In this document: one piece after another, positions 1,489-32,120 of the stretch
Position numbering within the stretch: position 1 is the stretch's first letter
Layout: each line of letters begins with the position of its first letter
NCBI GenBank assembly: GCA_046116545.1
Contig: CP175956.1
Coordinates: 833,734 to 897,733, forward strand
Direction: 5' to 3'
Length of the DNA: 64,000 nt
Source of the DNA: Candidatus Moraniibacteriota bacterium
GTDB taxonomy: Bacteria; Patescibacteriota; Minisyncoccia; Moranbacterales; GCA-2747515
Notes under the pieces: generated by a model
The model's database searches: none
Told to the model about the DNA's origin: nothing
The model's input: the letters and a program-made list of their open reading frames with translations, nothing else
Translations under genes and position numbers: made by a program

Positions 1489-2790
1489 TTAATCAGATTT
1501 AACATCAGAAATATTCAGTGGTAATCCATCTCTTTTAAAAAGAATTAAATTACCTCTATTTTCCTGCCACTTTACAAAATCTGACAACTCTACTACATCA
1601 TCAAATGTTGCACCAGAAAAATCCATAATGCAATTAAATTCATCATCAACTTCAATTTCTGGAAAACATCCATGATTACCTTCAAAGAAAATTGCACTAT
1701 CTATAGTTACTTGTTTACCAAAGACAATATTGGAATCACGGTCGTGATTGTGACTACTACGGAAATGGATAGAGCCTATAGTTGCTGACACGAAATTAAG
1801 ATTATGAGCCTCTTCATGATTAACAATCACTTTTTCACAAAGTCCTCTCATATATAAATCACAAAAGCCATCTCCACAATAAAGCTTTTTGACTCTATCA
1901 AGATTTAGTTTTATGGTCATTGCACCAAAATTATCAAGATAAACTTCATTAGCTATAATTTTAGATGCTAATTCCAGAGTGCCAAAGGAAGCTGTTCCAA
2001 AATTAATATTGAAAATAATCCCTTCAGAAAATACCACTTTCTTCAAAATATTAAATGTTGCTGCATCAAAATCAATGCTACAATAACATTGATTAGAGGT
2101 TACAGACATAAAACTAGCTGAGCCAAAATTTATCTCTGGCACAAATTTTTGATCACCGACTCGCAGATTATTAATTACAATTTCAACATTTTCAAAATTT
2201 GCTGATTCAAAGAAAACATTGCAACTACAATTATTGATGACTACGGATCCTTCATAAAAGGCTGTCCCTAACCGAAGTTCTGATTTAACGTTTTCAACAT
2301 GAAATCCGTTATCAAAACATGTCTCCCCACAAATAAGCTTTGAGATTATCAATCCACGAAAATCAACTGTTGCATCAAACACCTTTTCAGGCATATTGAT
2401 TGTACCGATAATGTGAATTGGAGAGTTTTTGCGAAACTCATCAACCCGCGCTACATAACCATCACAAAATAACTCTGCAAAATCATGCTTATCAAAGCCT
2501 TCGTGACTTTCTAAATAAGTAACAAAGTGTTCAGCTTTCATGGTAATAACATCACTTGTTTTTTCGATCATCATATTCTCCTCAATCCCATTCAAGAGAC
2601 GTGTAGTTTCTTTTCGTACTAATTCCTGCATTCCGCGAGGAATTAATTTCTGAGCTTCTGCCTTTTTTAAACCATTTTTCAGATTTGCGAAAGTTTGTTT
2701 GGACTTACCCTGCTCAAGAGCAAGCACGCCCTTTAAAACATTCCGTAATAATTCAAGGGATGAATTATCAGGTTTCTCTAAGCGGTCCAT
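1489..2790 (-). CDS. Hypothetical repeat protein with ~20-residue periodic (I/M)(N/D)FGxA(S/T)F repeats, possible beta-solenoid
   Basis: 433-aa ORF. Motifs SANFENV, INFGSASF, IDFDAATF, INFGTASF, MDFSGATF recur about every 20-23 residues. No recognisable catalytic motif. Confidence 0.4.
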   Translation of the reverse strand: MDRLEKPDNSSLELLRNVLKGVLALEQGKSKQTFANLKNGLKKAEAQKLIPRGMQELVRKETTRLLNGIEENMMIEKTSDVITMKAEHFVTYLESHEGFDKHDFAELFCDGYVARVDEFRKNSPIHIIGTINMPEKVFDATVDFRGLIISKLICGETCFDNGFHVENVKSELRLGTAFYEGSVVINNCSCNVFFESANFENVEIVINNLRVGDQKFVPEINFGSASFMSVTSNQCYCSIDFDAATFNILKKVVFSEGIIFNINFGTASFGTLELASKIIANEVYLDNFGAMTIKLNLDRVKKLYCGDGFCDLYMRGLCEKVIVNHEEAHNLNFVSATIGSIHFRSSHNHDRDSNIVFGKQVTIDSAIFFEGNHGCFPEIEVDDEFNCIMDFSGATFDDVVELSDFVKWQENRGNLILFKRDGLPLNISDVKSD

Positions 2791-2949
2791 ACGGATCCTC
2801 CATTAGAAATAGTTTACGATTTGTCGTAATTGTCGTCTATACAGATCAACAAATTTCTTGAACATATCAAGAAAACGACTAAAAAATTGTTAAAATACTA
2901 ACTATAAATATTAGCATGTTTACGGCTTTTTGTCCATATCACAAAATGT

Positions 2950-3045
2950 ACATCCGCCCTCACGCCCATGCATAATACAACAACATCTCCCCATTTTTAA
3001 GGGGGAGATGTCCGATAGGACAGAGGGGGTTTTAGATTGTTTTTC
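2950..3045. repeat. GC-rich dispersed multi-hairpin repeat (family D)
   Basis: catctccccatttttaagggggagatg is a perfect hairpin. gtccgataggac is a second hairpin, followed by agagggggtttt. It is near-identical to the unit at 32002-32051. Confidence 0.8.
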
Positions 3046-3055
3046 AAAAAATAAA

Positions 3056-3096
3056 AGTCAGATTTATGTAATACATAAATCTGACTATCGTTGCAA
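3056..3096 (-). terminator. Rho-independent terminator hairpin directly 3' of the tRNA-like element (minus strand)
   Basis: agtcagatttatgta-ata-cataaatctgact is a perfect stem. On the minus strand it is followed by ttttatttttt. Confidence 0.6.
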
Positions 3097-3160
3097 GCAG
3101 TACGGGGATTGAACCCGCTAGGCTCTGACCTATGTGGGACCCACCTCACCACCGCCATCA
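3097..3160 (-). ncRNA. tRNA-like fragment (T-arm plus acceptor 3' strand) with no complete cloverleaf. Either a tRNA 3'-end remnant or a small RNA
   Basis: Minus strand reads ...GGTCAGAGCCTAGCGGGTTCAATCCCCGTACTGCTTGCA. GCGGG-TTCAATC-CCCGT is a canonical T stem-loop. No matching 5' acceptor strand, D-arm or anticodon arm was found. The ~63-nt element is followed immediately by a terminator. Confidence 0.3.
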
Positions 3161-3294
3161 AAAATTTCAATATTATTTAAAATCTTTGATGGCAGTAACT
3201 TTTGTACTAACTTTACCAACACTACAATATAGCATATTTTAACTACTTTGTCAAGGACTGTAATTACAAAAAATCACATGCTATAATATCAGTT

Positions 3295-4914
3295 ATGGAC
3301 ATTATTAGAAAACAAAAAAAGAATCCTTCTGTCTCCAAACTAAATTCCCGCCTCCGCGGGAATGACAGTGGTGGTAATTTTCATGATAATGACTCTTTGA
3401 ATGGTGCTTATTCTAATACCAATCATAATCGTACTCAAAAAATTCAGACTCTTGATGAATATTCAGAGATCAAACAATCTTCCGGTGTAGAGACGCGATT
3501 AATCGCGTCTCTGCCAAAAACTCGTAGCAAAAAGATTTTTTGGATTTCTTTGGTTCTTTTTATTTTAGCTATTTTATTTGCTGGTGGATTTTTTATTCAT
3601 AATACCAACAACACAATTAATCAAATAACTGATGGTGAAGAAAAACATTCTTTTATGAAAACTGTTTCTAATTTTGCTAATCCTCAATCTTACAAAGTTC
3701 TACATGGGTTTGATACTGGTCGGATAAATATTTTATTACTTGGTAGAGCAAATACTCACAAAAAGGGTGGCGACCTCACAGATACTATAATGCTAGCAAG
3801 TATAAATACTGAGGATTATACTGTTGGACTTTTTTCTATTCCTCGTGATTTTTTGGTCAGCAATGGAAGCTTTTATTCAAAGATAAATTCTCGTTATCAA
3901 ACAGGCCTCCGAAATGATAAAGGTGCAAAATACATCATCAATTCAGTTGAAAAAATAACTGATCAAAATGTAGATTATTATTTTGTACTTGACTTTGAAG
4001 GTTTCACAAAGATTGTTGATATGCTCGGAGGTATAAATGTAGACGTCCCTAAACATATCAAAGATGAACGATATCCTGGAGCAGGTTATACTTATGAAAC
4101 ATTTGAAGTTTATCCTGGGTTACAAAAATTTGATGGTACTACTGCACTTAAATATGCTCGTACTCGTCATGCTGATATCGAGGGAGACTTTGGACGAGCA
4201 AAAAGACAACAACAAGTCATGCAAGCTGCTCGCAACAAAGCATTTTCGCTTGGCACAATTATGAATCCTCTCAAAATAACTGAACTCCTAAATATACTTG
4301 GTGAACACGTTCACACAGATGTCACTCCTGATGAGATTGAACCTTTTATTTCTCTTATCAAAAAATTAGATACTCACAATATAAATAATGTTGTCCTTGA
4401 TGCTTGGAAGTCTGGCAGCTTACTTATCTCTGCTAGATATCATAATGCTCATGGAGGAATATCTGGATTAGTCCCTCGCTCAGGAACTTATGCTGAAATC
4501 CAAGACCAAGCTAAAAACTTATTTGACCTTGATAAAATAAAACAAAGACAAGACGAAATAGAAGATGAATCCCCTACTATTATACTTATCAATACGACAA
4601 GCAAAAATGTTATATCAGCTAGAGTCAAAACTGCTTTATTATCTCTAGGCTTTGATGACGTTATCATAAAAAGTAATAATTACAACACACAAAACAAAAC
4701 AACTATAATCGATAATACGGGGGGCATAAAAACTTTTTCACTTGATGAACTTATCAAAAAACTACCAGCAAAAAAAGACACCCAAGCAAAGACAAAATAT
4801 GAGGATACTGACTTTGTTATTTTGCTAGGAAGTGATATGGTTGATGCATATACATACACTGAAATTTCACAAGAGGAATTGGAAAGTGAAAATGCACAGA
4901 ACAATGATAAATAA
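3295..4914 (+). CDS. LytR-CpsA-Psr (LCP) family cell-envelope phosphotransferase
   Basis: N-terminal TM helix (IFWISLVLFILAILFAGGFFI). LCP core reads ILLLGRANTHKKGGDLTDTIMLASIN...GLFSIPRDFLV...VDYYFVLDFEGFTKIVDMLGGINVDV...YARTRH. Confidence 0.8.
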   Translation: MDIIRKQKKNPSVSKLNSRLRGNDSGGNFHDNDSLNGAYSNTNHNRTQKIQTLDEYSEIKQSSGVETRLIASLPKTRSKKIFWISLVLFILAILFAGGFFIHNTNNTINQITDGEEKHSFMKTVSNFANPQSYKVLHGFDTGRINILLLGRANTHKKGGDLTDTIMLASINTEDYTVGLFSIPRDFLVSNGSFYSKINSRYQTGLRNDKGAKYIINSVEKITDQNVDYYFVLDFEGFTKIVDMLGGINVDVPKHIKDERYPGAGYTYETFEVYPGLQKFDGTTALKYARTRHADIEGDFGRAKRQQQVMQAARNKAFSLGTIMNPLKITELLNILGEHVHTDVTPDEIEPFISLIKKLDTHNINNVVLDAWKSGSLLISARYHNAHGGISGLVPRSGTYAEIQDQAKNLFDLDKIKQRQDEIEDESPTIILINTTSKNVISARVKTALLSLGFDDVIIKSNNYNTQNKTTIIDNTGGIKTFSLDELIKKLPAKKDTQAKTKYEDTDFVILLGSDMVDAYTYTEISQEELESENAQNNDK

Positions 4915-13646: not shown

Positions 13647-14309
13647 TCAACCAATATAGGCTAATCCTTTTTCTTTTAACTTACTACGTGCATTCGTCAT
13701 CAATGAACAAAATTCTTCCTCTGTAAGAATAGTGTCTGTTATATCACTTTTACCAATTGAATGAATAAGTTTTCTATTACGTGTTGCCAAAAGTGCAGCA
13801 ACTACATCCAAACTTATATTTTCTAGATCAAAAACTCGCTTAAGCAAATCCCAATATTCTTCCGAATCTCGCTTATAAGTTTTACCCTTCCAATATAATA
13901 TTTGATCTTTTTTCCAATTATTGTATTCTTGACCAGTCTTTTGTACTTCATAACCAGTTAGACTGCACAACCACAACTGTTCATTGAGAAACTTTGTTTT
14001 GAATGCTTGCAACAGCCCTTCCCGAGTTGCACAATAAACTCCATCAAAATAGAATGGACATTGATATAAATTGCTCAACAAATTTGCAGGATACTTACCA
14101 TGCGAATGAATGTCAATTGACTCATGTTTTTTTGCCACATCATACCCAACAAGTGAAAATGCAACAGTCACAAGTGGAACAAGCCACCATTTACTTATTG
14201 TATAACCGAACAATAAAACCTGACTTCCAGATTGGGTCACTAAAATAATATAGATTACTAATGTTCCTGTTAATCCAAATAATGCCCCCCTGCCGATTTT
14301 ACTTTTCAT
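13647..14309 (-). CDS. Membrane-anchored NADAR-domain (YbiA/DUF1768-like) protein
   Basis: N-terminal TM region, then ANLLSNLYQCPFYFDGVYCATREGLLQAFKTKF, which resembles the NADAR signature LSNF.P.PF..DG..Y.S.EH..QA.K. The start is taken at the internal MKSKIG. Confidence 0.5.
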   Translation of the reverse strand: MKSKIGRGALFGLTGTLVIYIILVTQSGSQVLLFGYTISKWWLVPLVTVAFSLVGYDVAKKHESIDIHSHGKYPANLLSNLYQCPFYFDGVYCATREGLLQAFKTKFLNEQLWLCSLTGYEVQKTGQEYNNWKKDQILYWKGKTYKRDSEEYWDLLKRVFDLENISLDVVAALLATRNRKLIHSIGKSDITDTILTEEEFCSLMTNARSKLKEKGLAYIG

Positions 14310-14360
14310 AATTAAACCTCCCAATTGCTATTTAATTTATTGTTCTGTTAACTTACTATC

Positions 14361-25861: not shown

Positions 25862-27334
25862 CTATTTCAATTTCTCTTTTAAAATCTCCATAACCATTTG
25901 AGGATTTGCCTTTCCTCCTGTTTCTTTCATTACTTGTCCCATAAGATATTTGATTGCATTCTCTTTTCCTGCTTTATAGTCATCAACAGATGACTGATTT
26001 GCAGCAAGTACATCATCAACATGCTTCTCTAACTCGCCTGAATCAGAAACTTGTGCTAGATTTTTTTCTTCAATTATATGACTTGGATCATCGTCATCGC
26101 CATAATACATTTCAGAAAGAACTGTTTGAGCAGCTGAAGAGTTAATTGTACCATCTGCAACAATTCCAATAAGTTCTGCGAAATTTTCTGCAGAAATACT
26201 AATATCTGTGATTTTTTGATTTTCTTTAGACATTATTCCCTGTAATTCTCCTACAAGATAATTTGCTGCAAGTTTAATTGCTTTTTGTATATCTGATTTC
26301 ATTTCACCAGACTTATTCTTATCCAGCAACTCACTTACCACATTCTCAAAAAATCCTGCAGTATCTTTATCAGCTGTTATAACTGCACAATTCCCTTCAC
26401 TAAGATCATATTCTTTTTTAAATCTTTCTTCTTTTTGATGCGGTAGCTCAGGTAAAGTTCTTTTTAATTCTTCAATATATTCATCTGTAAAAATCATTGG
26501 AGGAATATCTGGTTCTGGAAAATACCTATAATCATTTGCATTTTCTTTTTTACGCTGTGAAACAGTTTTACCTTTATTATCATCCCAACCACGAGTTTCT
26601 TGTGCGATTGACTCTCCAGCATCAAGAGCTTTTCCTTGTCTTATAATTTCAAATTCAATTGATTTTTCTACAACTTTAAATGAGTTAAGATTTTTAATCT
26701 CAACTTTTTGTCCGCTCAATTTATCTTCACCGTCTTTATAAAGAGAGACATTTACTTCACAACGCATCTGTCCTCGCTCCATATCCGCATCTGCAATATC
26801 AAGATAACGAAATACTTGCTGAATTTTTTGACAAAATAATCTAGCTTCTGCACCTGTTTTAATATCTGGTTCAGTTACAAGCTCCATAAGTGGCACTCCG
26901 GCACGATTCAAATCAACCAAAGTGTAATTAGCACCTTTTGGATGAGTTGATTTGCCTGTGTCTTCCTCCATATGAATACGAGTGATACCTATCTCCCTAT
27001 CACCTATAGTAATCTTACCAAGTCCACAAAGTGGCATATCAAATTGAGAAATCTGATACCCTTTTGGTAAATCAGGATAAAAATAATTCTTTCTATCAAA
27101 TTTACTTGTACGTGCAATTTCACAATTAAGTGCTAACCCCGCCTTTTGCACAAATTCAATAGCTTGCCTATTTGGCACAGGTAAACTTCCAGGTTGTGCA
27201 GTTGTCACTGGATCAATTGATACATTTGGCCTATCTTCCATACCCAAATGATTTGGAGCTGATGAAAACATTTTTGATTTAGTTTTCAACTCAACATGGA
27301 TTTCCATTCCCACTGTTACATTATATTTACTCAT
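25862..27334 (-). CDS. gatB: Asp/Glu-tRNA(Asn/Gln) amidotransferase subunit B
   Basis: YNVTVGMEIHVELKTKSKMFSSAP is the GatB N-terminal signature, with a C-terminal YqeY/GatB tail. Confidence 0.9.
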   Translation of the reverse strand: MSKYNVTVGMEIHVELKTKSKMFSSAPNHLGMEDRPNVSIDPVTTAQPGSLPVPNRQAIEFVQKAGLALNCEIARTSKFDRKNYFYPDLPKGYQISQFDMPLCGLGKITIGDREIGITRIHMEEDTGKSTHPKGANYTLVDLNRAGVPLMELVTEPDIKTGAEARLFCQKIQQVFRYLDIADADMERGQMRCEVNVSLYKDGEDKLSGQKVEIKNLNSFKVVEKSIEFEIIRQGKALDAGESIAQETRGWDDNKGKTVSQRKKENANDYRYFPEPDIPPMIFTDEYIEELKRTLPELPHQKEERFKKEYDLSEGNCAVITADKDTAGFFENVVSELLDKNKSGEMKSDIQKAIKLAANYLVGELQGIMSKENQKITDISISAENFAELIGIVADGTINSSAAQTVLSEMYYGDDDDPSHIIEEKNLAQVSDSGELEKHVDDVLAANQSSVDDYKAGKENAIKYLMGQVMKETGGKANPQMVMEILKEKLK

Positions 27335-27355: not shown

Positions 27356-27721
27356 TTATCTATTATCACCATCTCCATGTATTTTATTCCTCATCAATCT
27401 ACTTTGTGTCTTTTTGATATTACCCTCTGCGACATCATCCAAATTCAGATTTAATTCTGTAGCCAGCTGTGCAATATACCAGAGAACGTCTCCCAACTCC
27501 TTTGCAATCTCTGCACGTGTTTCATCATTTATTTTCCCACCTTTATCCCTAATAACTTTTTTAATTTTTTCTGCCACCTCGCCTGTTTCACCCGCAATTC
27601 CCAAAACTGGAAAAATAAAGTTGTTATCCTTATCTGGATAAACTGCATGTTTGCGTGTTTTCTTTTGATACTCACTAAACTTCATAATACTTTTAATCTT
27701 TATATTATCTACCTTATTCAA
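27356..27721 (-). CDS. MazG-like nucleoside triphosphate pyrophosphohydrolase (all-alpha NTP-PPase)
   Basis: FSEYQKKTRKHAVYP...LGIAGETGEVAEKIKKVIRDKGG...ELGDVLWYIAQLATELNLNLDDV is the MazG/dimeric-dUTPase-superfamily EExxE/D pattern. Confidence 0.75.
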   Translation of the reverse strand: MNKVDNIKIKSIMKFSEYQKKTRKHAVYPDKDNNFIFPVLGIAGETGEVAEKIKKVIRDKGGKINDETRAEIAKELGDVLWYIAQLATELNLNLDDVAEGNIKKTQSRLMRNKIHGDGDNR

Positions 27722-27727
27722 CTAATT

Positions 27728-28153
27728 TTATTTAAGCCCTGTGCTACCAAATCCACCGTCACCTCTTTGTGTCTCATCAAGTTCATCTACTTCTTCTATA
27801 ATAGGACATTCTACCCTTTGAATCAACATTTGTGCTATCTTATCTCCTTTATTTATTTTATAATCTTTTTTGGACAAATTTCTTATGATAACACCAATTT
27901 CACCACGATAATTACTATCAATTACACCACCCATTGTTTTAAGACCACCTTTAAAAGCAATGCCACTCTTATCCCAAATAAGCCCTACAAATCCGTCAGG
28001 GATTGCCATACTAATCCCAGTTTGACATGCTACTATGTCTCCAGGACTTAACACGATATCCTCAATAGAATATAACTCCATTGCAGCATCTCCTTCAATA
28101 GTATATTGTGGTAATTTTGCTTCTGGATTAATCTTTTTTATTTTAATATTCAT
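27728..28153 (-). CDS. dut: dUTP diphosphatase (trimeric dUTPase)
   Basis: AMELYS, GLIWDKSG, GVIDSNYRGEIGVIIRN and GDKIAQ are dUTPase motifs. Confidence 0.9.
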   Translation of the reverse strand: MNIKIKKINPEAKLPQYTIEGDAAMELYSIEDIVLSPGDIVACQTGISMAIPDGFVGLIWDKSGIAFKGGLKTMGGVIDSNYRGEIGVIIRNLSKKDYKINKGDKIAQMLIQRVECPIIEEVDELDETQRGDGGFGSTGLK

Positions 28154-28247
28154 ACTTTTAAAAATTCATTAACTATACTAGTCTATCAAATTCAAAGGAA
28201 AATTAAAAGACCCTATCTTTGTTAAGATAAGGTCTTTGCAAGCTAAT

Positions 28248-29615
28248 TTATACCATCCGACGAGGAAAATAATCTCCATCATTCCTCAGTCTAATATCAC
28301 GCCCGCAGTAGCGATCACCTTCAGCACACTTTCCAAGCTCAAAGCAAGGTGGCTGAAACATCGCTAGGAGGTCTGAATTAATGCCACATTTTTTAGCAAC
28401 AGCTTCACGTTCCAAAACACCTAGATAATAAATTTCTTCTTGAGCACACCAGCAAAGCCTCTTGTACTGTTCATGCAAAATAGCATTAAAGGAGCCTTTT
28501 TTAATATACTCTACAACAGCACCATATGGTGCAAGTATCATTGCAAGAGTCCCTGGAACAGTTTTTTCAATTGAAATCCATTGACTCATAAGGTCACGCG
28601 CTCTACCTCCCAATCCTAATTTTTGCACTATTGGTGGTAAATAAAATGCACCTGTGAATTGTGGAGCACCTCTACGAATTGTACGATGTCTTTGATCTTG
28701 TCCCATAGTTGCCACTGACATTCCGACACATACCTCTATATCGCCAATAGAATTATTCATCATCTCTGGTGCAAAATGTGATTTATCAACTGGATGCATG
28801 ACGTCAGCATTTGGTTGCACAAAAACATGTTCATTTTGAACATTGCATGAAAAAATATATGGCTCAGTTGCAATCTCAATATCACTGTGTGATGGAGGCT
28901 GAACAAACCAATCGCCTTCACGACGTCTACTTTCATCAAATACATATGCAATATCTGGATATTTCTGAGAAAATGCACCTGCAATCTTTGCCGTAACATC
29001 CTTCATTGCTGGCGTCCACGCTTCTTCATACATCGCAACAAGAGCTGTGAGATTTAATGTAAAATCTAAAGCTGTTGGAAAAATGGTTGAAATAAACATG
29101 CGCAGTTGCTCCTGAGCAACCTTTGGCGCAATTTGTGCAACCATTTTATTCGCTATAAATGGACGTTCTTGTCGCAAAAAATCTGCAGCAATTTTATTTG
29201 CTTCAGATTTATTTTCCTGATAAATCTTCACGCCAAACTCTAAGTAACGTTCTATCTCCACAAGATCTCTTGATGATACCTGTGGCCAATACACACGAAC
29301 ATACTGCATCATTTTATCAAAGTCAGGCTCCGTAAACATCTTTGCAGCATATCGTCCACTCCGTTGGTCTGTGTTATAAAATGGACTTACTAGATGTAGT
29401 CCAAAAGTTACATCCCCAACAGCAATGCCATCAATACTATTTGTTCTATAAGCATCAGAATGTTGCATCGTTGTATGATGTGAAACACGGAACAACCTAT
29501 TTTCAACATCAATTTCTTTACCAACTTTTGGCACTGTCGATTGATAACATTGCAACGCAGCATGCGAAGCCGATTGTGTTGGCGTCATGTCTGGTAACAT
29601 TTCTACTTTAATCAT
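28248..29615 (-). CDS. thyX: Flavin-dependent thymidylate synthase ThyX-like; apparent tandem-fused (pseudo-dimeric) form
   Basis: 455 aa, about twice a typical ThyX. The N-half has HHTTMQH...FYNTDQRSGRY, which resembles the ThyX SxRY end of the RHRx7SxRY signature but lacks RHR. The C-half has ATMGQDQRHRTIRRG and CAQEEIYYLGVL, which resemble the ThyX RHR motif and AQWEI helix. GC is higher than in neighbouring genes. Confidence 0.5.
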   Translation of the reverse strand: MIKVEMLPDMTPTQSASHAALQCYQSTVPKVGKEIDVENRLFRVSHHTTMQHSDAYRTNSIDGIAVGDVTFGLHLVSPFYNTDQRSGRYAAKMFTEPDFDKMMQYVRVYWPQVSSRDLVEIERYLEFGVKIYQENKSEANKIAADFLRQERPFIANKMVAQIAPKVAQEQLRMFISTIFPTALDFTLNLTALVAMYEEAWTPAMKDVTAKIAGAFSQKYPDIAYVFDESRRREGDWFVQPPSHSDIEIATEPYIFSCNVQNEHVFVQPNADVMHPVDKSHFAPEMMNNSIGDIEVCVGMSVATMGQDQRHRTIRRGAPQFTGAFYLPPIVQKLGLGGRARDLMSQWISIEKTVPGTLAMILAPYGAVVEYIKKGSFNAILHEQYKRLCWCAQEEIYYLGVLEREAVAKKCGINSDLLAMFQPPCFELGKCAEGDRYCGRDIRLRNDGDYFPRRMV

Positions 29616-29631
29616 CTTTTACCACCTCCAA

Positions 29632-29895
29632 TTAAATTTGTTTGAGAAAAACTCTAAATTCAGAAACTTTTTCTTCAAATTTTTTGTATGTATGTTCCAT
29701 TTCTCTCTTTGCACACGTATCACATTTGTAATCCGCAAACCGTGGACAATTACAAAATGAACAAATAACCACTTGAAATTCTTTTGTTCCACCTTTTTTA
29801 CAAATGACTCCAATTAATTGAAGACCTTCTTTTTCTGCCCCGTCCTTAGATTCTTGACTAACAGTCTCTGGAATTGTCCATTTTTTATCACCCAC
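29632..29895 (-). CDS. Small Cys-rich zinc-ribbon-like protein immediately upstream of thyX-like gene
   Basis: VICSFCNCPRFADYKCDTCAK gives a CxxCxC...CxxC pattern. 87 aa. Confidence 0.4.
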   Translation of the reverse strand: MGDKKWTIPETVSQESKDGAEKEGLQLIGVICKKGGTKEFQVVICSFCNCPRFADYKCDTCAKREMEHTYKKFEEKVSEFRVFLKQI

Positions 29896-29963
29896 AATTC
29901 TTCCTCCACTTATAATTTAATAATGTAAAATTAATATACAAAACTGTATTATTATGAGTTTAT

Positions 29964-30055
29964 GTTAAAAAACAAAAAAACTAGTATCTTACTAGTTTCT
30001 AAACTATTGCATCTTACAGTTCTTTAGTCAACCAAAAAATAAAAACTAACCAAAT
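29964..30055 (-). terminator. Two tandem intrinsic terminators after the dNMP-kinase / dCMP-deaminase genes
   Basis: aaactagtatcttactagttt and aaactaaccaaatgttagttt hairpins. On the minus strand each is followed by a T-run. Confidence 0.55.
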
Positions 30056-30114
30056 GTTAGTTTTTAAATATCACATCTATTGCAACATCAATCAATGATT
30101 ATTAATCATATCAT

Positions 30115-30672
30115 TTAACACACTTTTTTTGAATCAACTAGATCATCAACTTGCTTATGTAATTCTTCAACACTTCCACTATTATTTATAATGACATCAG
30201 CAAACTCTTTTAATCCTTTAACTTGTGCTTCTGATTCATTTTTGCTTTCTGCCTCAAATTCTTCAAATGTTTTATTTTGATCATCTACATTTTCACTTCT
30301 TTGAATAATTCTTTCATATCTTGTTCTAATATCAACATCTATATAAACAAGCTTAAATTCTGGCAATTCTTTTAAATATTTTATATCATCCATACGGCGA
30401 ACACCGTCAATTACAATGATTTCAGCAGCATCACTTTTTGCATCCTCAGCCATTACTCTTGCCATCGTATCTTCTCCATAAGTTTGACGAAGCATTGTTG
30501 AGAGATTTTGCAAGTTATCACGAGAATTTTCCAAATGCAATCTATCAAGAACATCTCTAAGCATTGTAGAAAAACGATGTTGTGAAGTGTCACATTTTTC
30601 ATTTAAATATTCTGATACTGTTCCTTTACCACTTGCCATTTCTCCTGCAAGTCCCAAAACCATTCTTGTCAT
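30115..30672 (-). CDS. P-loop deoxynucleoside monophosphate kinase, phage T4 gp1-like (paralog A)
   Basis: LGLAGEMASGKGTVSEYL P-loop and C-terminal INNSGSVEELHKQVDDL resemble T4 dNMP kinase (SGKDT ... NDGSLEEL). It is paralogous to the 31206-31778 gene, with a shared FEEFEAES segment. Confidence 0.55.
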   Translation of the reverse strand: MTRMVLGLAGEMASGKGTVSEYLNEKCDTSQHRFSTMLRDVLDRLHLENSRDNLQNLSTMLRQTYGEDTMARVMAEDAKSDAAEIIVIDGVRRMDDIKYLKELPEFKLVYIDVDIRTRYERIIQRSENVDDQNKTFEEFEAESKNESEAQVKGLKEFADVIINNSGSVEELHKQVDDLVDSKKVC

Positions 30673-30690
30673 TTTTTTGATATTATAAAA

Positions 30691-31182
30691 TTATTTATCA
30701 ATCTTCTTTAACTCAATTCTATTTTGTGGTTCATATTGTCTCAACTTTATACCAGCTGTCTCAAGCATTTTTCTAGCTATTTTAAATATATCAATATTTG
30801 CATACTTATCCGAAACATAAATAACTTCTTTCACACCACTTTGGATAATTATTTTTGCACATTCATTACAAGGAAATAGACTTACATAAAGCCTGCAACC
30901 ACTTACATTATCATTTGCATTCATGATAGCATTTGCCTCAGCATGAACTACATAAGCATATTTTGATTCAGATGTCTCACCATCTCTGCACCAAGGTAAA
31001 TCATCATCATGACAGCCTCTAGGAAATCCATTATATCCAAGTCCTACTACAACATTTTCATTATTCACAATGCAAGACCCGACCTGAGTTGAAGGATCTT
31101 TTGAACGCATAGCTATGAGATTACTCATAAGTACAAATGTCTCATCCCAATCAAGATATTCTTGCCTTTTATCATTTTTCAT
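30691..31182 (-). CDS. dCMP deaminase (ComEB-type cytidine/deoxycytidylate deaminase)
   Basis: Zinc-binding HAEANAIMNA and LFPCNECAKIIIQSGVKEVIYVSD. The N-terminus reads WDETFVLMSNLIAMRSKDPSTQVGSCIV. Confidence 0.8.
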   Translation of the reverse strand: MKNDKRQEYLDWDETFVLMSNLIAMRSKDPSTQVGSCIVNNENVVVGLGYNGFPRGCHDDDLPWCRDGETSESKYAYVVHAEANAIMNANDNVSGCRLYVSLFPCNECAKIIIQSGVKEVIYVSDKYANIDIFKIARKMLETAGIKLRQYEPQNRIELKKIDK

Positions 31183-31205
31183 AATAATGTTTTATTCTAT
31201 CAACC

Positions 31206-31778
31206 TTAATTACAACGTTTTTTTTGCAAAATATTTTTCATAGCATCATCAACTTGCCACAACAAATCATCCATGGATCCATCATTTTTTACAGTAAAAT
31301 CAGCATCTTTTCCAATTACTGGAATTGCCTTTTCTGTTTCTGATTCTGCTTCAAATTTTTTAAATTCATCGAAAGTCTGATCATCATCGCTCTTTTCACC
31401 ACGGCTAGTAACTCGTTTCCATCTCAACTCTTGATCAGCTGTTACATATATAATATAACTATCTTCAAATGATCTTATGAATTCAAGATCCATCATCATA
31501 CGCATACCATTAACACACATAATACCATGATGTTGATGTACATACCTCAATACACCTTTATGCAAAACATCTTCTCCAAAACGATCTTTAAACATACTAT
31601 ACAACCATGCTTGGTCTTCTTTTGAAGATTTATCAAAAAACAAATCCAATGTTTTTTTAAGTGGCATCCCAAATCGTAATAAATCAACATCGTATCGACG
31701 TTTCAAATAATGTGCAACTGTATCTTTCCCACTTCCAGTCTCCCCTACTAATCCAATGATGATTTTTTCATTATACAT
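31206..31778 (-). CDS. P-loop deoxynucleoside monophosphate kinase, phage T4 gp1-like (paralog B)
   Basis: IIGLVGETGSGKDTVAHYL closely matches the T4 gp1 FLSGVKRSGKDTTADFI. The C-terminal TVKNDGSMDDLLWQV matches ITNDGSLEELFSKI. Confidence 0.55.
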   Translation of the reverse strand: MYNEKIIIGLVGETGSGKDTVAHYLKRRYDVDLLRFGMPLKKTLDLFFDKSSKEDQAWLYSMFKDRFGEDVLHKGVLRYVHQHHGIMCVNGMRMMMDLEFIRSFEDSYIIYVTADQELRWKRVTSRGEKSDDDQTFDEFKKFEAESETEKAIPVIGKDADFTVKNDGSMDDLLWQVDDAMKNILQKKRCN

Positions 31779-31870
31779 ATAACTATTTTGTAGAAACTAA
31801 CTTTTTACTTATAAATTATATAGCAAAATTTGTGGAGTTGCAAGTTAAGAATATCCTAAACAAATAACCA

Positions 31871-31905
31871 CCCCTCAATCCCCTCTTTAAAAAGGAGTGG
31901 AGGTA
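31871..31905. repeat. Dispersed hairpin repeat (family C)
   Basis: cccctcaatcccctctttaaaaaggagtggagg, similar to the unit at 7073-7108. Confidence 0.7.
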
Positions 31906-31910
31906 AAAAC

Positions 31911-31970
31911 TAAACTAAACTAAACTAAACTAAACTAAACTAAACTAAACTAAACTAAACTAAACTAAAC
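31911..31970. repeat. Pentanucleotide microsatellite (TAAAC)12
   Basis: Twelve perfect tandem copies of taaac, plus one degenerate copy upstream. The repeat lies upstream of the minus-strand dNMP kinase gene and downstream of rplA. Confidence 0.95.
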
Positions 31971-32001
31971 AGAATTAAGCTTAAGTTAAATTAATAATAC
32001 A

Positions 32002-32051
32002 TCCTCTCCACCTTTTTAAGGGGGAGATGTCCGAAGGACAGAGGGGGTTTT
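32002..32051. repeat. Dispersed multi-hairpin repeat (family D)
   Basis: cctctccacctttttaagggggagatgtccgaaggacagagggggtttt, near-identical to the unit at 2994-3044. Confidence 0.8.
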
Positions 32052-32120
32052 ACAACAAAAATAAAAAAGACGAGCAAGAAACCCGTCTTTCCAAAATTCA
32101 ATCTAAATCTTTACTCTAAT

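Follow-up and report, generated by a model that had tools for sequence, protein, structure and literature searches.

The stretch analyzed here comprises 64,000 nucleotides of a Candidatus Moraniibacteriota bacterium (Patescibacteria, or Candidate Phyla Radiation, CPR; assembly GCA_046116545.1, contig CP175956.1, positions 833,734 to 897,733 of the forward strand) and is referred to as the window. It contains seven consecutive minus-strand open reading frames (ORFs) which, in the order of transcription, code for a P-loop kinase (kinase B, gene kinB), a deoxycytidine monophosphate (dCMP) deaminase (dcd), a second kinase (kinase A, gene kinA), a small Cys-rich protein, a ThyX-like protein of double length, a dUTPase (dut) and a MazG-type pyrophosphohydrolase (mazG). 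The genes rplA, rplK, nusG and secE are located upstream of kinase B, and gatB follows mazG (Table 1). We consider it likely that these genes form a native housekeeping cluster that supplies deoxyuridine and deoxythymidine monophosphate (dUMP and dTMP), placed between the rplK-rplA operon and gatB. The fused ThyX and the kinase pair are its parts of moderate interest, while the rest is ordinary.

All seven ORFs listed in an earlier interpretation that had only the letters of the DNA at hand (the sequence-only reading) are present, in the order and with the ends given there, and are followed by gatB. Their shared strand carries little information because the minus strand dominates this part of the window: it holds about three-quarters of the large ORFs in the window, and the genes from about 24 kb to 38 kb form one minus-strand run. 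The start codon of mazG is probably the ATG at 27685 (27356-27685, 109 aa), which is favored because the ortholog has 109 aa in two close relatives (L081 and L084).

Table 1. Genes and transcription signals of the cluster and its flanks, in window coordinates.
Feature	Positions	Strand	Remarks
rplA terminator-like hairpin	32064-32092		upstream of the kinase B promoter-like site
Promoter-like site	31815-31843	-	TTGCAA-17-TATAAT; upstream of kinase B; 10/12 consensus matches
Kinase B	31206-31778	-	190 aa; GSGKDT P-loop; UPF0200/SSO1041-like P-loop nucleotide/nucleoside kinase
dCMP deaminase, eukaryote (DCTD) type	30691-31182	-	163 aa; zinc motifs VHAE and PCNEC
Kinase A	30115-30672	-	185 aa; paralog of kinase B, UPF0200-like family
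Terminator-like hairpin 1	30033-30066	-	after kinase A; 11-bp stem, -9.6 kcal/mol, z -3.66, then AUUUUUU
Terminator-like hairpin 2	29967-30000	-	11-bp stem, -9.8 kcal/mol, z -2.97, then UUUGUUUUUU
Cys-rich ORF	29632-29895	-	87 aa; GTG start; CxxCxC-x7-CxxC
Tandem ThyX-like ORF	28248-29615	-	455 aa; N-half ~1-235, C-half ~236-455
Strong terminator-like hairpin	28206-28237	-	gap between the ThyX-like gene and dut; 14-pair stem, -17.3 kcal/mol, z -6.0
Trimeric-type dUTPase (Dut)	27728-28153	-	141 aa
Small single-domain MazG-type NTP pyrophosphohydrolase	27356-27721	-	mechanical ORF, TTG start at 27721
gatB	25862-27334	-	downstream of mazG

Assigned functions and gene order

The deaminase, dUTPase and MazG assignments of the sequence-only reading stand, with curated or Pfam cutoffs passed. 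The deaminase matches PF00383 (1.9e-23, 82.7 bits, cutoff 25) and phrog_174 (1.6e-42). It aligns over its full length with human DCTD (PDB 2w4l; 7e-55, 57% identity over 150 residues), which has the same zinc motifs, the copy in the window being that of a bacterial host; its match to T4 Cd (1vq2) is partial (7e-13). The dUTPase meets both PF00692 (5e-32, 110.8 bits, cutoff 22) and TIGR00576 (144.3 bits, cutoff 102.6). The MazG protein matches PF03819 (2e-12, 47.6 bits, cutoff 22) and phrog_229 (1e-34), and its nearest solved relative is a small single-domain protein (PDB 2q73, 5e-7). Among the PHROG families of the cluster enzymes is also phrog_135, matched at 1.4e-52.

Going by family membership, the DCTD-type deaminase converts dCMP to dUMP, the trimeric dUTPase produces dUMP from dUTP and holds dUTP low, and the fused ThyX would methylate dUMP to dTMP. 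The MazG-type enzyme hydrolyzes nucleoside triphosphates (NTPs) or their deoxy forms (dNTPs). A route for dUMP and dTMP supply had been proposed from the enzyme set, and the family assignments and the genomic context agree with it. Though ordinary, such a cluster would show how reduced-genome Patescibacteria secure dTMP from salvaged cytosine deoxynucleotides.

Gene order was compared across related genomes, as the sequence-only reading had suggested, and is conserved in three close relatives (L081, L084 and L085). Two of these (L084 and L085) share the order secE-nusG-rplK-rplA-kinB-dcd-kinA-ThyX-mazG-gatB-miaA, and the third (L081) has rplA-kinB-dcd-kinA-tandem ThyX-mazG-gatB. The three are about equally near to the window (gatB 80-83%, kinB 82-84% and dcd 76-80% identity), and their cluster proteins are 70-84% identical to those of the window. 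A 1,286,331-bp contig of a Candidatus Moraniibacteriota metagenome-assembled genome (MAG) carries 100% matches to both the ThyX-like protein and kinase A. The position of the cluster, from rplKA to gatB, is kept in all close relatives, and its GC content (0.31-0.36) is that of the rest of the window.

For a wider comparison, 50 related loci were taken that have 2.5 kb or more of sequence on each side, and neighbors of the tandem ThyX gene were identified within 3 kb by class-specific references. The most common neighbor is a canonical tmk (24 of the 50 loci), followed by genes for a dCMP deaminase (18 loci) and a UPF0200-type kinase (13 loci), by dut (9 loci) and glyA (8 loci), and by a dCTP deaminase gene (7 loci). 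Nearly all of these are on the same strand as the ThyX gene. At least one nucleotide-metabolism partner is present in 29 loci and at least three partner classes in 18. The functional clustering around the ThyX gene is non-random because the order recurs in close relatives and because three or more classes of pyrimidine-nucleotide genes meet in those 18 loci. The cluster is recurrent but fluid. Within the window there is no tmk, glyA, dCTP deaminase gene or deoC.

Most other Patescibacteria loci code for a different, 188-aa deaminase type with 27-30% identity to that of the window; the latter type is found just in a few close relatives (L002, L003, L011, L079, L081, L084 and L085). This pattern suggests a xenologous replacement of the deaminase within the cluster. 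The dut gene is absent from its slot in the three closest relatives and precedes gatB in four other loci (L001, L009, L011 and L021). In the slot upstream of gatB, dut and mazG alternate (L001, L003, L006, L009, L010, L011, L021, L024 and L081), the window having both. There are hints that the dUTPase and the small MazG have overlapping roles, for example in dUTP or dCTP hydrolysis, and a dUTP/dCTP-type pyrimidine is a reasonable guess for the MazG substrate because mazG alternates with dut in the same slot.

The tandem ThyX-like protein

The 455-aa protein had been described as ThyX-like and of double length, and both points are borne out by a Pfam match and by the fold of its two halves. Pfam Thy1 (PF02511) is matched by the full protein over residues 10-197 with 28.0 bits (gathering cutoff 24.8), no single stretch passing alone, and the same family is precomputed for all 120 listed homologs. 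There are more than 850 full-length relatives, nearly all with 450-470 aa and mostly from Patescibacteria, and those with a name carry the label FAD-dependent thymidylate synthase. At E <= 1e-3, an exhaustive profile search found 708 representative clusters, of which 129 reach E <= 1e-30; distant tandem relatives of 485-528 aa, with uninformative names, exist as well. The long chlamydial ThyX, of about 529 aa, is a candidate member of this group.

Among PDB sequences, a full-length profile of the family has marginal ThyX matches, and neither the single sequence nor a profile of the C-half has any; homology is thus shown by fold. The AlphaFold2 model of the protein has a pLDDT (predicted local distance difference test) of 89 and a pTM (predicted template-modeling score) of 0.90. 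In a PDB fold search with the full model, ThyX and PolB account for the best 50 matches, and each match extends over about half of the query. The C-half folded alone has 156 PDB fold matches at E <= 1e-3, with template-modeling (TM) scores of about 0.55 over whole ThyX monomers, and the 50 of these that were listed are all ThyX. For 18 of 23 family members, Pfam Thy1 is also matched by the C-half on its own. Comparison of the two halves with hhalign detected no similarity between them, so a duplication is not demonstrable by sequence. With good support, we infer that the ORF codes for a genuine tandem ThyX, in which two very divergent ThyX domains are joined head to tail. A literature search on fused or tandem ThyX and on ThyX in CPR found nothing relevant.

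Canonical ThyX methylates dUMP in dependence on FAD and methylenetetrahydrofolate and is a homotetramer with four composite active sites. Residues were mapped onto ThyX from T. maritima (TM0449), the sequence used agreeing at 17 numbered positions, among them residues that the titles of PDB mutant entries name. The N-half (hhalign E = 1.7e-6) keeps the equivalents of H53, T55, S88-G89-R90-Y91, E144 and R147 and has lost those of R78 and R80. The C-half keeps Q75, R78-H79-R80 and the R..AQ.E helix and has lost the equivalents of SGRY, E144 and R147; a global hhalign of the C-half to TM0449 failed to align. The contiguous ThyX motif RHRxxSxxxxSxR was not found within one domain. It is split, with G..H...SGRY in the N-half and QDQRHRTxxR in the C-half, and is complete only across both halves.

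Across 76 sequences with 38-64% identity, the mapped catalytic residues are invariant or almost invariant. None of the 76, those from MAGs labeled as Alphaproteobacteria included, lacks any of four cysteines near the C-terminus (C388, C424, C430 and C437), and this 4-Cys site probably binds a metal. In three phage copies from IMG/VR (31-32% identity), the four cysteines and nearly all key residues are retained.

The complementary pattern of retained residues leads us to propose that each fusion protein has one competent composite active site. The N-domain would supply the dUMP-side residues (the equivalents of H53, S88, G89, R90, Y91, E144 and R147) and the C-domain the Q75/R78-H79-R80 side. 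A dimer of fusions would then mimic the ThyX tetramer, with two active sites instead of four. Compared to canonical ThyX (TM0449 and M. tuberculosis ThyX; PF02511, TIGR02170), the protein in the window has the same fold in both halves and the same genomic partners (tmk, dCMP/dCTP deaminase, glyA), but is a single 455-aa chain with two domains, a 4-Cys site and a C-terminal tail, and has two predicted active sites per tetramer equivalent where canonical ThyX has four.

The most telling evidence on its role comes from two of the close relatives (L084 and L085), in which a 335-aa canonical ThyX fills the slot of the tandem form while the gene order is otherwise identical. In one of these (L084), it scores 89.2 bits for TIGR02170 (cutoff 87.9). 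It has an intact RHRPCSFLQESQRY motif (RHRxxSxxxxSxRY) and a PDB ThyX match at 7e-11, and pairwise comparison found no similarity to the tandem protein. There is strong evidence that the tandem and the canonical ThyX do the same job, because the canonical form displaces the tandem form in situ within an otherwise unchanged operon; the two are interchangeable at this slot. A function as thymidylate synthase is supported further because tmk, dCMP deaminase genes and glyA neighbor the tandem gene in the wider relatives. The handling of a modified pyrimidine, which the sequence-only reading had envisaged, is disfavored because sister genomes have a canonical ThyX at this very place. The 455-aa protein is assigned, with good support, as a putative flavin-dependent thymidylate synthase.

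Several points weigh against a dTMP-supply cluster built around this enzyme. About 40% of the related loci have a tandem ThyX gene without nucleotide-metabolism neighbors, among them two relatives at 57-60% ThyX identity. The 455-aa protein has no match to the curated thyX equivalog TIGR02170 (NCBIfam, E <= 0.01), and its Pfam Thy1 score is marginal. The local hhalign of the C-half to TM0449 is insignificant (E = 0.34) though consistent in topology, the backing being fold match and motif logic. The equivalent of R174 is apparently lost in both halves. Finally, JGI labels the kinases as dephospho-CoA kinases, and one of them may itself have a dTMP-kinase role in this sub-clade (see below), the negative result for tmk covering the 64-kb window.

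Some of these points would also fit a ThyX-fold enzyme with another activity, such as methylation of UMP (PolB-like) or of dCMP, or some other flavin-dependent modification of nucleotides. The missing TIGR02170 match, the marginal similarity to solved ThyX and the apparent loss of R174 are joined here by the occurrence of PolB among the fold matches, by the extra invariant 4-Cys site and by a 546-aa tandem paralog encoded alongside in some Moraniibacteriota, which leaves room for sub-functionalization. Such an activity is nevertheless very unlikely, given the canonical ThyX in the same slot of sister genomes, the invariant or nearly invariant dUMP- and FAD-side residues, and the neighborhood, where canonical tmk is most common and is followed by dUMP-producing deaminases and glyA.

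A bolder version of the thymidylate synthase assignment would make the protein a representative of an uncharacterized class. It would be an obligate fused pseudo-heterodimer with divided active-site residues and half the number of sites, in which a redox metal at the 4-Cys site (e.g., an Fe-S cluster) serves flavin reduction in place of the NAD(P)H that known ThyX enzymes use, and one UPF0200-like kinase of the same sub-clade would be the missing dTMP kinase. We regard this combination as rather doubtful; if true, the widespread orphan UPF0200 kinase family would get its first function. Thymidylate synthase ThyX is an antibacterial target, and its active sites are built from several subunits. 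The fused ThyX would be a natural single-chain version of such an enzyme and a ready-made system for studying the number of active sites that ThyX requires and the way its flavin becomes reduced. It is conserved in many Patescibacteria, in some MAGs labeled as Alphaproteobacteria and in a few large phages.

The 546-aa tandem Thy1 protein just mentioned (L046, 10053-11693; also L055, L071 and L080) is encoded next to a dCMP deaminase and the tandem ThyX of 455 aa. Like the latter, it has a split pattern, with SGR in the N-half and RHR in the C-half, and a cysteine motif of the form R-x-C...P-x-C-x5-C...CG. The 4-Cys tandem architecture may thus define a wider superfamily.

Tandem ThyX proteins with 40-44% identity are also encoded in MAGs labeled as Rickettsiales, Alphaproteobacteria or Ca. 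Enterousia. In these loci (L048, L053, L056-L058, L060, L064, L065, L067, L069, L073, L076 and L078), nearly all key residues and the four cysteines are kept, and none of the gene neighbors seen in Patescibacteria is present. This suggests that the tandem ThyX has spread laterally among reduced-genome lineages.

The two kinases and readings as phage or defense genes

Kinases A and B, which flank the deaminase gene, are paralogs with 30% identity. The sequence-only reading had described them as T4-gp1-like, which is not supported. A profile of 30 family members has one strong full-length match in PDB, SSO1041/UPF0200 (3lw7/3h0k, 8e-17); its lesser matches are CoaE (5e-6, partial), Adk (2.7e-4) and T4 gp1 (0.0027), the latter confined to the P-loop. 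In single searches, kinase A matches SSO1041 (3lw7) at 7.8e-11 and kinase B at 7.6e-6, both over the full length, and kinase B has a partial match to T4 gp1 (1dek) at 0.015. With NF006226 (UPF0200/PRK08356), kinase A scores 91 bits and the other kinase 63 bits (cutoff 189), which makes them relatives rather than equivalogs.

The phage dNMP kinase families give a similar picture. For PF21448 (DNMK), kinase B scores 30.7 bits (cutoff 27.1) over residues 7-56, covering just 50 of the 232 model positions, and kinase A remains below the cutoff with 19.3 bits. Both match phrog_139 (phage dNMP kinase) over the full length (kinase B 1.6e-20, kinase A 1.9e-20), PHROG clusters being broad; beyond this match, the link to phage dNMP kinases consists of some short motifs. 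Names in the sources are "AAA family ATPase" or "dephospho-CoA kinase". The sequence-only reading had named dephospho-CoA kinase as an alternative family, and the CoaE scores are below the cutoffs (PF01121: 21.0 and 24.7 bits, cutoff 27, P-loop only; TIGR00152: 29.8 and 23.9 bits, cutoff 65.6). Neither kinase matches PF02223 (Thymidylate_kin).

SSO1041 ("AdkA-like") shares with the kinases the P-loop, the DG[VM]R motif and the C-terminal N[DN][GS]S..[ED][ED]L tail. We take the DG[VM]R motif and the tail to be common to T4 gp1 as well, the likeness of gp1 being limited to the P-loop or the C-terminal third. Unlike SSO1041 and gp1, the kinases in the window come as two paralogs, one on either side of a deaminase gene. 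As judged from these profiles, the kinases are enzymes of the nucleoside monophosphate (NMP) kinase fold that are distantly related to gp1 and are not gp1 orthologs. They might phosphorylate pyrimidine (deoxy)nucleoside monophosphates or nucleosides that feed the dTMP route. A literature search on the function of SSO1041/UPF0200 and on thymidylate kinase in Patescibacteria found nothing relevant. The family has a solved structure, and the conserved location beside a dCMP deaminase gene gives a concrete hypothesis for its function.

The earlier assignment of a dTMP kinase is not supported, given relatives in which a canonical Tmk (1e-21 to 1e-45) is encoded beside the tandem ThyX. Both kinase paralogs coexist with it in several genomes (L001, L003, L010, L021 and others), so they are not simply Tmk substitutes; the kinases are perhaps not canonical dTMP kinases at all. 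In the sub-clade of the window and its three closest relatives, however, one UPF0200-like kinase could have taken over dTMP phosphorylation. In addition to the lack of tmk in the window, none was found on the contig of L081 or, for L084 and L085, in the +/-7 kb around the cluster, and the megabase contigs of these genomes, three in all, hold none of the best 120 Tmk homologs; those 120 are all at least 57% identical, which is too narrow to show absence. Kinase B combines the gp1-like GSGKDT P-loop with an NDGSxDDL tail, and T4 gp1 phosphorylates dTMP, besides hm-dCMP and dGMP. Given the coexistence with Tmk elsewhere, which points to another ancestral role, and the lack of specific similarity to PF02223, we rate such a takeover as unlikely, if still worth considering.

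The trio kinB-dcd-kinA also resembles the anti-phage dCTP deaminases of the AvcD type, which pair a P-loop kinase-like module with a deoxycytidylate deaminase of the cytidine deaminase (CDA) fold, and it might accordingly be a split defense system that depletes dCTP on infection rather than a housekeeping set. The PADLOC model "dCTPase" is matched domain by domain (kinases at positions 153-331, deaminase at 435-500 of 630), and NF041025 is matched by kinase A (1.9e-7, positions 2-207) and by the deaminase (2.1e-21). These matches remain at the domain level, with 29, 42 and 90 bits for PADLOC and a best NF041025 score of 76 bits against a cutoff of 400. The known form is one polypeptide with an N-terminal kinase-like and a C-terminal deaminase part, whereas the window has three separate genes without any fusion. 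The deaminase is close to the housekeeping, allosteric DCTD (7e-55). Many Patescibacteria keep the trio in synteny with genes for ribosomal proteins and with ThyX, tmk, dut and gatB, and its conservation in relatives (70-84% identity) is typical for core metabolism rather than for a patchy defense island. A defense function is therefore highly improbable.

The kinase profile also touches a chain of Tad2, a tRNA adenosine deaminase subunit (7eey; E = 0.0028, residues 4-171), maybe through a kinase-like region in another protein of the deaminase family, which would be a further point of contact with the AvcD type. P-loop kinase-like modules thus recur with CDA-fold deaminases in this cluster, in the anti-phage dCTP deaminase and in the 7eey match.

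The cluster had been interpreted as phage-flavored, possibly a domesticated nucleotide-metabolism and base-modification module of the T-even type that might handle a modified pyrimidine. Its list of enzyme activities indeed overlaps that of the T-even sets (gp1, cd, dut/56, td), and all five enzyme types have PHROG families (phrog_139, phrog_174, phrog_135 and phrog_229). Yet no protein of the window is specifically T4-like: the thymidylate synthase is of the ThyX type and not ThyA/Td, the deaminase is far from T4 Cd, and the kinases are nearest to the archaeal SSO1041. A hydroxymethylase (such as the dCMP hydroxymethylase of T-even phages) or a glycosyltransferase is not present. The swap for a canonical ThyX and the canonical tmk and glyA neighbors fit ordinary dTMP.

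Tandem ThyX does occur in phages. Three large IMG/VR contigs carry a distant copy beside PolB-like and DnaB-like replication genes, and BFVD contains double-length ThyX-like proteins, for example from Microcystis phage Ma-LMM01 (491 aa), which aligns structurally end to end (TM about 0.5, E = 2e-10). The double-length architecture is thus shared with some phages and is not unique to this locus, although the BFVD proteins have just 11-12% identity to that of the window (Ma-LMM01 12%) and the gene in the window is a chromosomal one in synteny with genes for ribosomal proteins. A tblastn search of 50,697 phage genomes found no match for the tandem ThyX; for kinase A there are five marginal matches in these genomes, and the kinase family had no match in IMG/VR by the scan made. 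The cluster has a native GC composition, its rplKA-gatB position is conserved across relatives, and its flanks contain neither an integrase nor a tRNA nor any other phage gene. We therefore consider a phage origin to be extremely improbable. Elsewhere in the window, at 13647-14324 on the minus strand, a 225-aa ORF belongs to the T4 gp30.3 family (Pfam Phage_30_3, 1.4e-36). It might be counted for a phage origin, being the only clearly phage-named family encountered in the window, but is unrelated to the cluster.

Transcription units and lineage-specific features

A single co-transcribed module of all seven genes is at odds with the three terminator-like hairpins that split the region. There are probably about three transcription units, kinB-dcd-kinA, the Cys-rich ORF with ThyX, and dut-mazG-gatB, rather than one operon, because of these hairpins, the rplA terminator and the promoter match before kinase B. 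The latter is a consensus match alone, the regional number of such sites not being above that in shuffles. The two tandem terminators seen after kinase A by the sequence-only reading are real hairpin and T-run structures by their folding energy compared to shuffles. Their stems are AT-rich, and a consensus terminator scanner missed both; hairpin 1 has no second copy in the window. The hairpin between the ThyX-like gene and dut, absent from the earlier description, is the strong one, and none of 200 shuffles folds equally well. An Rfam scan of the cluster found no family, riboswitch or leader.

The Cys-rich ORF is present as described earlier, when it was called a Zn-ribbon protein, but its place in a conserved module is not supported. 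It has no family match and no phage match, and no tblastn match in 80 related loci. The three closest relatives lack it, their gap between kinase A and ThyX being only 106-127 bp. As judged from these comparisons, it is a lineage-specific orphan outside the conserved cluster. It lies 16 nt upstream of the ThyX-like start, and its good ribosome-binding site (GGAGG) indicates that it may be expressed.

The intergenic region between rplA and kinB contains a perfect (GTTTA)x12.8 microsatellite at 31907-31970, flanked by 26-nt imperfect inverted arms with 77% complementarity (whole element 31878-32028). The gap between the two genes is 342 bp in the window and 105-170 bp in the three closest relatives. 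Because it is longer here, the GTTTA array region is read as a probable small insertion. Another intergenic region contains, at 2984-3030, a sequence that resembles one of the arms with 3 mismatches and is adjoined by a conserved stretch of about 25 nt. Close by, at 3090-3165 on the minus strand and within the intergenic region 2790-3300, a candidate resembling a tRNA was seen by eye; it has a T-arm-like motif, GGGGATTGAACCC.

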